Source of the DNA: a virus
Lineage: Duplodnaviria; Heunggongvirae; Uroviricota; Caudoviricetes
Virus record (IMG/VR): IMGVR_UViG_2711768071_000008
Location: 1-8,852 of that record
DNA length: 8,852 nt
Direction: 5' to 3' (one strand)
The notes below the pieces were generated by a model, which saw only the letters and a program-made list of their open reading frames with translations, made no database searches and was not told where the DNA came from. Positions 1 to 8,852 of the stretch are shown here, piece by piece; the stretch's first letter is position 1, and every line of letters begins with the position of its first letter. The position numbers and the translations under genes are program-made.

Positions 1-35
1 CGAAACCATTTGATCATATGACAAGATGTGTATCC
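1..35 (+). ncRNA. 3' portion of IS10 antisense RNA-OUT (partial; 5' part is outside the window)
   Basis: In IS10, pOUT transcribes outward across roughly bp 115 to 47 of the element; bp 47-81 map to window 35-1 on the plus strand. The sequence CGAAACCAUUUGAUCAUAUGACAAGAUGUGUAUCC matches my recollection of the RNA-OUT 3' arm. Exact ends uncertain. Confidence 0.35.
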
Positions 36-81
36 ACCTTAACTTAATGATTTTTACCAAAATCATTAGGGGATTCATCAG
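1..81 (-). mobile_element. IS10 (Tn10-type) outside terminal end, partial; the element body lies beyond the window start
   Basis: The reverse complement of 1-81 reads CTGATGAATCCCCTAATGATTTTGGTAAAAATCATTAAGTTAAGGTGGATACACATCTTGTCATATGATCAAATGGTTTCG, which I recognise as the IS10 outside end. It contains a 10-bp AT-rich palindrome (45-54 / 59-68) and a GATC at 12-15. Recalled from memory, not searched. Confidence 0.85.
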
Positions 82-446
82 CGCTTCGCCTCTTCATCCG
101 TCACCCACTGGCTGCCATCCCAGCGCTGGTATTCTCCGTCTGGTGCAATAAATGTGCCATTTTCAGGAAGTTCCCCCAGTTCAGATATCGGGACTGCATT
201 TCCGGTTTCTGTTGAATAAACCGTTTCCCCCCGATGGTCTTCAACCAGACGCCATGAATTGTCAGCAGTATCAAACATTGCTGTAAAACCTTCGGGGATT
301 TCCGGCGGTACAATATCCGTACAGTTTGCGGGTAATCCGGTATGAGGCGGTATATAAGCGTCACCACTGCCGATAAATTCTTTTGTATCTTCAAGAAAAT
401 TAAATACACGAATGGTCCGTGCTTTATCGCTCATTTTAAAAGTCAT
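78..446 (-). CDS. Tail fibre assembly protein (Tfa / lambda Tfa / P2 gpG / P1 U family), C-terminally truncated by the IS10 insertion; 122 aa
   Basis: The translation has the conserved N-terminal chaperone motifs ([53 protein letters not shown]). Its ATG overlaps the fibre stop (TAATG at 444-448). Intact family members as I recall them are about 175-200 aa. The ORF ends at a TGA (78-80) supplied by the IS10 terminus. Confidence 0.8.
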
Positions 447-3412
447 TATGCAAGCCTCACAATATAGTTAAATGCGATGTTTTTGACGGTGTTTTCTGCG
501 TTACCAGTAGCGTTAACAGTGACGGTGTGTCCGTGTGAACCAATAGCAACAGTGTGCATATGAGCACCAATGCCGACAGTGTGCGCATGCGCACCAGCAG
601 ATTTGGTGTAAAGATTTACGGTGCCGGTACTCATATTTACTGTTTTGCCACTGCCGGCACTGACAGAAACATTTTCACCAACACCGTGATTATGACCACC
701 TGTGTTATTTGTTGATTTAGTTCCGTAGTCAAACGACGACGTGGTTTTCGTCCCCAAATCCGTACTGGATGCACTGGCACTGTGGGCGTGTGATTTAATG
801 CCGTCCTGTTCCTGAGACAATACGGCACGACCACTGGCGGGTTTGCCCTTAATCGTCCAGCCACGCATATCAGGGATCACGCCTGACGGATAAGCGGCTG
901 CAAGTTTCGGGTATGCAGATTTGTCAAAAGTCTGCCCCTGCATCAGGGCATAGCCAGACGGAACGGTATCTGATGGCCACGGGATTGGTGCGCCAGGCGG
1001 ATAAAACTGCTCTGATGGCGTATAGAGTGAATAAACTGTACCGTCCGTTAACCCTTCCGGCTTATTAGCAGAATATGCTGGTGACGTATGAATCGTCACG
1101 CTGGCATTACTGGTATAATCCCATTGAATATTTACACCAGTCGCATAATTTCCGATTGCAACGTAAATATCGTAAGTATCACCAGATGTATTAACCCAGG
1201 CAAAATTTGTAAACCCTGTCGATGTGCGCTGCCATAAAGCACCAGTAATCCCCTTCGGATTACCGTTACCTGCACGCAAAACAAGTTCAGATATACCTGC
1301 CTGTTGAGGTGACCCCACGTTAAATCCCGCGCCACCAATCAACGTAATTGAAACAACAGAACTTGCCTGCGGCATGGTTACAGTTGCCAGCTTGAACCAT
1401 CCTGCACCACCACTAAAAGACATTGTTGTGGAGTTGATTGTGCCTATAGACCGTGGGTTAAGTTCAATATCTTTAGAACCATCAAACGAAACACCGTTAA
1501 TAGTGCGCGCCGTCTGCAATCTGGTCGCCGTAGCAGCATTGCCGGAGGTATCCTGATCCCCTTTGGCATTGACGCCGGGAATTGAATCTTTTGACGTATA
1601 GACCTGCGCCCAGTCAGACCAATTGGAAGAATCAGTATCCCGCCGCGAACGGATATGTACGGGCGCATGGGCACCGCTCGTGCCGCTCCAGCCAATGAAT
1701 AACTCGCCTTCGCCAGCAGCGGTGGCACCTTTAAGGTGAAGCACATTCCCATAGGGAGAAGGGTAGCCATTGTTGTATGCCTCATACAGCTGAATCCCGG
1801 ATGTTCCCTGTGCATTCGCCTCCAGGGCCGTTACGCGACCGCGAGATACCAGAGTATTGATATTAATGTCAGCCGAACCATCGAACCTGACGCCATTAAT
1901 GTTTCTGGCTGTTTTTAATTTCGTCGTGGTGTCGGCGTTCCCCGCCAGCGCCCCGGTGATCCCACCGTTGAAAGTCTGGCGTGCACTCCATGTGTTAGCC
2001 GTGCTCAACAGGGGGATCTTTTCACCGCTGGTACCGAGTTCTCTTAAACCAAGGTATTGGATAACAGCAAGAACGCTTGTTTTGGCCAGAATATCGCGAC
2101 CGACTGACGTTAAGTCAGTCTGAGAAACAGTGTCTGTACCGGTAAAGTACGGCAATTTATTTGCACCTGTCGCAAGACCAGCAAGCGCGGTTAAAGTTGC
2201 ATCAAGTGGCTGTTTCCCTGCCAGCGCATTTGTCATTGTTGTCGCAAAGTTCGGGTCATTGCCCAGTGCTGCTGCAAGCTCATTCAGGGTATCAAGAGCT
2301 TCAGGTGATGAGCCGACCAATGCAGAGATAGCAGCCCGTACGTAAGCAGTCGTAGCGATCTGCGTATTGTTTGTGCCCTGTGCAGCCGTAGGCGCAGTAG
2401 GTATTCCCGTTAATGCAGGACTTGCTAAAGGAGCTTTAAGAGCCAGAGCATTGTTGATAGTTGTGCTGAAATTCGGGTCGTTATTGATCGCAGCCGCTAT
2501 TTCTTTCAGCGTATCCAGTGTGCCAGGCGCACCGTTGATAAGTGCAGTTATAGCTGCCTTAACAAAGGCTGTATTTGCGATCTGCGTGCTGTTTGTACCT
2601 TGCGCTGCCGTCGGCGCGGTTGGCGTTCCTGTCAGACTCGGGCTTTCTATTGGCGCTTTGGTATCAGCCAGATCTTTTATAGACTTAACAGCTTTAGGGG
2701 TAGCCGCCATTGTTTCGCTGTCGCTGTTAGTTGCGCTACTGAGCTGAACTAATCCCTTTTGCGTTGTGCTTGCATCCTGCGCCGTATACTTGCTTTTCGC
2801 CAGATCGTAGGCTTTTTTAACTGCCAGCGAACTTGCAGCAACATCACTTCTGGTACTGGTTACAGAGTCTGAAATATCAATGCCGATCGTGCGGTTGATA
2901 CGCTCGGATGTATCAATCATCTCCTGGGTAATAGCAGATACACCAGCAGGGATATTCACCGTACAAACAAGCAGCTCCCCATCACCTAACTGATATGAAT
3001 CGGTATAGATTCTGGCAACAAATTCAGCCGCATGAATATGTGACGCGGTATTCACCTGATAGGTATCTTCTCCAAGGAGGTATCTTCCCTTCAGCACAAT
3101 TGCATATTTCTTGCCTGCACTAAGTGCAAGAGAAATATCCTTACGTTGCTGAATAGTTACCTGGTAGAATTCACCAATATCCACCGACGCCGCGCCTGCG
3201 GTTTTATCACCATCCACTGAGGTGATTAACAGGTTCATCCCACCGCCAGGCTTAGGTAAGAAACCGGCATAAAATCCCGGGTCAACAATCCCCCTGAATT
3301 TTCGGTTTAGCGCGGCTGACAGATATGGTTCGTGGTATTGCACATCAGCCACCAGAGCCAACGACTCGGGTGATGGGTAAGTAACCGATGTGACAACTGT
3401 AACGTCATTCAT
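446..3412 (-). CDS. Tail fibre protein, mosaic (P2 gpH / lambda Stf-like repeats; T4 gp37 / lambda Stf-like His-rich C-terminal tip); 989 aa
   Basis: Long ORF. I place the start at ATG 3410-3412 (MNDVTVV) with an AAGGA ribosome-binding site about 9 nt upstream, because the 29 codons of the track ORF above it overlap the upstream gene. The translation contains [25 protein letters not shown], two copies of the LTG(T/I)[11 protein letters not shown]...[25 protein letters not shown] repeat, ILAK..VIQYLGL, and a C-terminus [50 protein letters not shown]. Confidence 0.9.
2039..2064. other. Serine DNA-invertase crossover site (hix/gix/cix/pix-like), 26-bp imperfect palindrome inside the tail fibre gene
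   Basis: TTCTCTTAAACCAAGGTATTGGATAA matches hixL (TTCTTGAAAACCAAGGTTTTTGATAA) at 22 of 26 positions and gix (TTCCTGTAAACCGAGGTTTTGGATAA) at 21 of 26, both sites as recalled. It has two 12-bp half-sites around a central AA and encodes the conserved VIQYLGLRE junction motif. Confidence 0.75.
2210..2659 (-). repeat. Two tandem copies of a ~225-bp coding repeat (about 75 aa each) in the constant part of the fibre gene
   Basis: Protein residues ~281-355 and ~356-430 are near-identical in pattern ([32 protein letters not shown]... versus [32 protein letters not shown]...). The DNA is visibly similar at a 225-bp offset, for example 2340-2415 versus 2565-2640. Confidence 0.7.
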
Positions 3413-3423
3413 TAAGCATATCC

Positions 3424-3858
3424 TTATGCTGTAGTCGTGTTTATGGCCATAACTGCGGTATATGTTTTGCCCACATACAGCGAGTCTTCCTGGACACAAA
3501 TAATGGCGATTGGCTTGTTCTCGTTATCCAGAACAACCAGAGTGTTGAATGGGTAGTTTTTCCCTTCCTGCAACTGGCTTTGATCAAGGTCCATTCGGAC
3601 AGTAATTATCCCACCTGAGTAGGTTGGCACGAGGTTGATGGTGCAAAATTGACTGGTCAGTTCTGCCAGATCGAAAGCCTTTGGCAGTTCTCCAATCTCA
3701 TAAGTGCCATCTCCTTTCTTAGTAACCAGCGAACTGGTACCGAAAACGGCCTTGCTGATTAAAAATCGAGAGCCTTTGTTAATGGACGATTCAGCGCGCC
3801 GCTGATAGTAATAGTCCAACAACTGACTCTTATAGAGGTTTGTTGAGACGTCAGACAT
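3424..3858 (-). CDS. Hypothetical phage protein, 144 aa, between the baseplate genes and the tail fibre (possible fibre-associated structural or assembly protein)
   Basis: Clean ORF with ATG at 3856-3858 and an AGGGAA ribosome-binding site about 6 nt upstream. Its stop lies 11 nt before the fibre start, in the same orientation as the operon. I recognise no motif. Its position matches what I recall of gene R in the P1 R-S-U operon. Confidence 0.6.

Positions 3859-6558: not shown

Positions 6559-6559
<1 letters not shown>
6203..6559 (-). CDS. Baseplate wedge protein, gp25 / GPW-like; 118 aa
   Basis: Small ORF. I prefer ATG 6557-6559 over the track's TTG at 6562; it overlaps the stop of the upstream gene (TGATG). 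Size and position directly before the J-like gene are typical of gp25/W/TssE-family proteins. Confidence 0.6.

Positions 6560-8852
<2,293 letters not shown>

Follow-up and report, generated by a model that had tools for sequence, protein, structure and literature searches.

Tail fibre assembly gene split by one IS10 insertion in a P1-like phage-plasmid of Escherichia coli, with probable loss of chaperone function

The DNA analysed here (8,852 bp; hereafter the window) is the complete contig CYGA01000059.1 of a draft E. coli assembly (GCA_001284285.1), built from short reads, and each of its ends stops within a multi-copy insertion sequence (IS). On the left are 81 nt from the outside end of IS10, and on the right 107 nt that belong to IS100. 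All genes in the window lie on the minus strand in the order of the P1 tail module, namely sit (with an SLT domain), a gene for a 118-aa protein, a baseplate J/gp6-like gene (477 aa), gp16 (278 aa), R, S, and a tail fibre assembly gene occupying the position of P1 U. The host element of this last gene is a P1-like phage-plasmid, that is, a resident prophage. Between the two IS ends, the window differs from the corresponding contig of a sister isolate (L002) by one mismatch in 8,664 nt. The features on which the analysis relies are as follows.

1 to 81, minus strand: outside end of IS10 (IS4 family, ISVsa5-like), first 81 nt, identical at 81/81 positions to an annotated ISVsa5/IS10 copy.
78 to 446, minus strand: truncated tail fibre assembly gene (Tfa; position of P1 gpU), codons 1-122 of 191, from the open reading frame (ORF) and comparison with homologues.
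82 to 90, no strand assigned: 9-bp IS10 target site, CGCTTCGCC on the plus strand and GGCGAAGCG in the sense of the gene, repeated beyond IS10.
446 to 3412, minus strand: tail fibre gene S, 988 aa, with a P1-like constant part and a T4 gp37 / lambdoid Stf-type tip, from a match to PDB 2XGF and identity to P1.
2039 to 2064, plus strand: cixR recombination site inside S, without a partner, identical to the P1 cixR region at 26/26 positions.
3424 to 3858, minus strand: homologue of P1 R, 144 aa, a tail fibre or baseplate wedge protein, from Pfam PF26881 Phage_P1_tail_fiber_R (precomputed) and synteny with P1.
6559 to 8745, minus strand: C-terminal part of sit, about 727 codons, a predicted tape measure gene with an SLT domain, the intact Sit being encoded on L002.
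8746 to 8852, plus strand: left end of IS100 (IS21 family) inserted in sit, the contig ending inside the element.

The tail fibre assembly gene follows S directly, in the same order as on L002, and the two genes overlap in the sequence TAATG at positions 444-448, where the TAA stop of S meets the ATG start of the chaperone gene. The 122-aa ORF that begins there terminates in WVTDEEAKR. A first-pass annotation of the window had proposed that the stop codon of this ORF is supplied by an IS10 terminus, and this proves exact: window position 81 pairs with IS10 base 1, so that gene and element join at the very terminus of IS10, and the TGA consists of IS10 bases 2-4 (window positions 80-78). Codon 122 is composed of CG from the chaperone gene and C from IS10 base 1; because the resulting CGC and the native CGT both encode Arg, the truncated product corresponds exactly to native residues 1-122 and carries 0 foreign residues. 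The IS10 transposase is read in the same direction as the chaperone gene. IS10 prefers hot spots with the consensus NGCTNAGCN, and across the 576-nt gene no site other than the target used here agrees with it at 5/6 positions. Matches to the IS10 end are present in 1,880/5,426 E. coli genomes, and no record with the same junction emerged when the window was compared by megablast with the phage and plasmid collections and with complete E. coli genomes.

The far-side junction was predicted first: the inside end of IS10 should lead into a second copy of the 9-bp GGCGAAGCG and then into the remainder of the gene. The predicted junction yields a 78-aa ORF beginning MRGSLRAKRDALINQ, and an exact look-up identified it as CTZ95115.1, which shares an accession block with the downstream genes. 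The corresponding contig of the same assembly, CYGA01000049.1 (L014, of which 12.9 kb was read), opens with 82 nt of the IS10 inside end (81/82 identical to the reference copy), continues with GGCGAAGCG at positions 83-91 and codons 123-191 of the gene, and then reaches a terminator-like hairpin. Thus, the remainder of the chaperone gene sought beyond IS10 in the first-pass annotation does exist, with the missing 69 codons (123-191) on L014. Joining the window part to L014, with one copy of GGCGAAGCG and the IS removed, restores the intact 576-nt gene exactly. The 78-aa ORF takes its start codon, an ATG, from within the IS10 inside end and encodes residues 120-191; at L014 positions 61-91, this in-frame ATG lies 17 nt from the tip of the inside end with GGGGA upstream, and RefSeq names the product a tail fiber assembly protein (WP_261289686.1). 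An exact IS10 terminus, an inside end on the far side, and the same 9-bp duplication form a pattern that is not a matter of chance. Insertion of Tn10 in place of IS10 was also considered and rejected on account of the far junction, where the inside end shows that a single IS10 was inserted. A complete IS10 is 1,329 bp long, with the transposase gene between its ends; the window and L014 both stop 81-82 nt into the element, its interior having collapsed in the short-read assembly, and the remainder beyond the 81 nt in the window is therefore presumed.

Since the window is a short-read contig with both ends inside multi-copy IS elements, its end could be chimeric, in which case the real chaperone gene would be intact. 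Against this stand the join at the exact first base of IS10, the presence on a separate contig of the same assembly of the inside end together with an identical 9-bp repeat and the remaining codons, and an independent Logan assembly (run ERR175735, assumed to be the same isolate) with the same far-side junction. In addition, no intact copy identical to that of the sister isolates is recorded from GCA_001284285.1. Given the exact rejoining with L014 and the identical junction in the Logan assembly, a chimera is effectively ruled out, and this explanation is regarded as exceedingly improbable.

A second IS lies at the other end of the window and had gone unmentioned in the first-pass annotation. 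IS100 is inserted in sit, a predicted tape-measure / transglycosylase gene, at the 5-bp target CCGAC (positions 8741-8745), after about residue 403 of a protein that is 1130 aa long when intact, as on L002. The 738-aa "Sit" ORF of the window starts at a GTG (position 8775) inside IS100 and its first 10 residues are derived from the IS, so this ORF is an annotation artefact of a split gene. The predicted product of the far side, comprising Sit residues 1-403 followed by five IS-encoded residues (408 aa), exists exactly as CTZ95018.1 in the same assembly. A flank shared at the IS100 junction with plasmid pEcoFMU073332c was set aside as a coincidental 6/7 match and does not reflect the same insertion. 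Sit is the predicted tape measure of P1 according to one published account (PMC9024508). Because IS100 breaks this gene, tails can probably no longer be assembled, with or without a working chaperone, and the prophage is probably defective, as judged from the sequence.

The full-length form of the chaperone is known from close relatives. An intact allele of 191 aa (P0001) shares its first 122 residues with the window product at 100% identity. Sister contigs of related assemblies, including L002, encode it, and GCA_001283845.1 is the assembly of a sister isolate in which the gene is intact. A search with the 122 residues retrieved 773 homologues, the best 120 of which are 181-205 aa long, mostly 191, with a range of 189-205 aa given for intact homologues; a natural form of about 120 aa does not occur among these best 120. 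Records of the 122-aa form are limited to a single contig (CTZ95791.1). These lengths agree with the first-pass view that the protein is truncated relative to members of about 175-200 aa, and the alignment that it had suggested locates the loss in the C-terminal 69 residues. The intact protein matches the Pfam family PF02413 (Caudo_TAP) with 111.4 bits (E = 4.5e-32) over profile positions 1-127 of 131 and residues 72-188, and phrog_105 with E = 8e-82. The window copy scores 31.2 bits against the same Pfam profile (cut-off 22.1), over profile positions 1-59 of 131 and residues 72-120 only; it ends after residue 122 and lacks the helical domain of the full two-domain Caudo_TAP architecture. A comparison of N- and C-terminal identity among the homologues was discarded as biased, the hits having been picked with an N-terminal query.

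An AlphaFold2 model of the intact protein (mean pLDDT 79.6) places beta strands at residues 10-116 and helices at 118-152 and 158-175. In this model, the IS10 cut falls at the predicted boundary between an N-terminal beta domain and a C-terminal helical domain, the whole of which is removed. Residues 108-167 of the Mu Tfa structure (5YVQ_B) align to residues 122-181 in a weak match, and P1 U resembles the intact protein mainly in the same C-terminal region, with 21% identity. In Tfa chaperones, as summarised in one report, a variable N-terminal domain binds the fibre and a conserved C-terminal helical domain serves trimerisation or assembly (PMC9608196); in related systems, folded fibres require co-expression of the chaperone (PMC8174754). 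The position of the cut at the modelled domain boundary suggests that chaperone function is likely lost.

The same position raises the prospect that the split chaperone still works, with the 122-aa beta domain and the 78-aa helical fragment, the latter made from a read-through late transcript, together folding the fibre. The N-terminal fragment contains no foreign residues, the far-side ORF has its in-frame ATG and the GGGGA within the IS10 end and is called as a gene (CTZ95115.1), and single-domain short families exist in PHROGs: phrog_7290 (112 positions) covers the N-terminal part only and phrog_3792 (78 positions) the C-terminal part only. Since each of these families matches one part only, stand-alone Tfa halves are annotated elsewhere, although they may themselves be fragments. 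However, the mechanism proposed in the report cited above requires the fibre-binding and oligomerising domains to be tethered (PMC9608196), and nothing points to an association of the two halves. The 122-aa allele is confined to a single contig, close relatives all keeping the fused 191-aa form, and, because sit is broken too, selection is not maintaining virion production. A working split chaperone of this kind is very unlikely. The wider proposition that a natural split chaperone assembles the fibre, or that a free N-terminal domain caps or blocks fibres, is likewise highly improbable.

The fibre protein on which the chaperone would act is a mosaic. Within the last 317 aa of S, residues 119-294 match the T4 gp37 tip (2XGF_A) with E = 1.4e-77, in support of the gp37 / lambda Stf-type tip assigned in the first-pass annotation, and His-x-His repeats are visible in the translation of the tip. 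Positions 1457-3500 of the window have 97% nucleotide identity to P1, and positions of about 216-1498, comprising the tip and the chaperone gene, are about 90% identical to stf-tfa cassettes of chromosomal lambdoid prophages. A mosaic boundary can be placed within S near position 1457, with the P1-like part upstream in the gene and the tip and chaperone gene (about 82-1456) resembling lambdoid prophages; the chaperone part is 98.9% identical in E. coli STEC316. The mosaic structure of S fits a horizontal exchange of tip-chaperone cassettes.

In P1 and P7, this part of the genome belongs to an invertible segment, and the first-pass annotation had suggested that, if the segment inverts, the insertion might in effect lock productive infection to the other orientation. 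The corresponding explanation is that of a phase-variable host-range switch in which IS10 inactivates the C segment in one orientation while the other still permits infection. An intact cixR identical to that of P1, together with inversion of this segment in P1 and P7, speaks for such a switch. However, a second cix-like site (cixL) was not found at up to 7 mismatches in L002 or in the 12.9 kb read of L014. In place of an intact cin there are two fragments, an N-terminal one of 74 aa (resolvase) and a C-terminal one of 87 aa (HTH_7), which lie on opposite strands and are annotated in GCA_001284285.1 as CTZ95131.1 and CTZ95127.1, respectively. Moreover, what lies downstream of the chaperone gene, after the terminator-like hairpin, is a complete 538-aa fibre gene followed by a 190-aa DUF4376 gene, all on the same strand; the fibre gene carries a lambdoid Stf N-terminal domain (PF08400) and is not the P1 Sv' segment, and an inverted Sv'/U' set was not seen at the locus where P1 has one. 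The break in sit weighs against an infective orientation as well. The C segment thus appears frozen, and, as such, has no other orientation into which infection could be locked, so that the earlier suggestion is not supported and a switch of this kind is regarded as extremely unlikely.

Several further observations concern this region. The second fibre gene and the DUF4376 gene lie at positions 10622-12807 of L002 and 348-2533 of L014, and the cin region at 12915-13535 and 2641-3261, respectively. The 74-aa fragment of cin is P1-like and adjoins lydC, and the 87-aa HTH fragment represents a different invertase allele. One 74-aa protein from the 90%-identity cluster of this P1-like fragment is annotated in Salmonella phage SJ46 and is encoded on 94 contigs. 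The split state of cin suggests an old inversion or a replacement that brought in foreign fibre genes.

Taken as a whole, the locus is very probably explained by a single IS10 that split the Tfa-type gene of a P1-like phage-plasmid, leaving the chaperone most likely inactive, in the course of a recent IS-driven decay of the prophage. One IS10 transposed into a lambdoid Tfa-type allele at the P1 U position, taking the best match of the gene to the IS10 consensus and generating the 9-bp duplication, and the gene was thereby divided into a 122-aa N-terminal product with an IS10-supplied stop and a 78-aa ORF on the far side. The beta domain would normally bind the tip of the fibre, and the helical domain would bring three fibre C-termini together. 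With the covalent link between the two domains lost, trimerisation of the gp37-type tip of S would most likely fail, and the chaperone is accordingly most likely inactive. IS100 in sit is a second insertion, which would independently disable tail assembly. The IS10 insertion with its junctions and target duplication, the loss of the helical domain, and the presence of IS100 are directly shown; an inactive chaperone and a defective phage are inferred from them.

Some residual function is conceivable within this model. Partial activity might persist in the N-terminal domain alone or in the two fragments combined. Read-through transcription of IS10 may occur and, with the weak Shine-Dalgarno-like GGGGA before the 78-aa ORF, could allow production of the C-terminal fragment. 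Should the strain also have a Tfa protein of a related chromosomal prophage (98% identical, cluster P0003), that protein could complement in trans. The population may also be mixed, with some uninterrupted copies, which would be compatible with a short-read assembly.

The importance of the case beyond annotation is small. CTZ95791.1 (122 aa) and CTZ95115.1 (78 aa) are the halves of one pseudogene, and the 738-aa and 408-aa "Sit" proteins are those of an IS100-split gene; both pairs should be flagged as such. More generally, the locus is a warning that apparent short proteins arise from contig ends inside IS elements, and it illustrates how quickly resident P1-like phage-plasmids gain IS elements, since sister isolates that differ by 1 base in 8.7 kb have these genes intact. 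The allele also offers a ready-made truncation at a domain boundary for testing the two-domain model of Tfa; were the split-chaperone or fibre-capping reading true after all, it would show whether covalent tethering of the Tfa domains is required.

With respect to known systems, the intact allele belongs to the Caudo_TAP family (PF02413), which includes lambda Tfa, Mu and P1 gpU, and E. coli TfaQ/TfaR, by its profile match and two-domain layout. It shares with this family its location immediately after the fibre gene, the overlapping stop and start codons, and a gp37-type tip as partner. The window copy differs in that it retains residues 1-122 only, devoid of the helical domain, and is a fragment of a family member. 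Compared with P1 U, to which identity is only 21%, it is a lambdoid-type allele in a P1 backbone. The likeness to the Cin / C-segment switch of P1 extends to the same constant part of S, the same cixR, and the same position beside the lyd genes; the difference is that no cixL was found, cin is not intact, and no inverted Sv'/U' was seen, so the switch appears frozen.

The element itself behaves as a simple insertion of IS10 (IS10-right of Tn10; ISVsa5), with exact outside and inside ends, a 9-bp duplication, and a target matching NGCTNAGCN at 5/6 positions, in none of which is there anything unusual. An independent case exists in the chromosome of E. coli O126:H45 MIN10, where ISVsa5/IS10 cuts the tfa gene of a lambdoid prophage to 55 codons (L010, NZ_CP069677.1 3642572-3648938, locus positions 1266-2746); the other flank of that IS lies in a PAAR-domain gene, suggesting an IS-mediated rearrangement. 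The nearest parallels for the element as a whole are the P1/P7-backbone phage-plasmids pSvP1 and pTZ20_1P, for which Venturini et al. 2019 (PMC6906374) described an IS in sit, truncation of cin, and a C segment that is incomplete. The present element resembles them in all of these respects, backbone included, and differs from pSvP1 in that it carries IS100 in sit and IS10 in the chaperone gene, where pSvP1 has IS2 in sit and IS10 in nmpC (PMC6906374). Thus, the truncated chaperone gene is an ordinary and recent instance of IS-mediated pseudogenisation in a decaying phage-plasmid, an event of a known kind and not a new mechanism.
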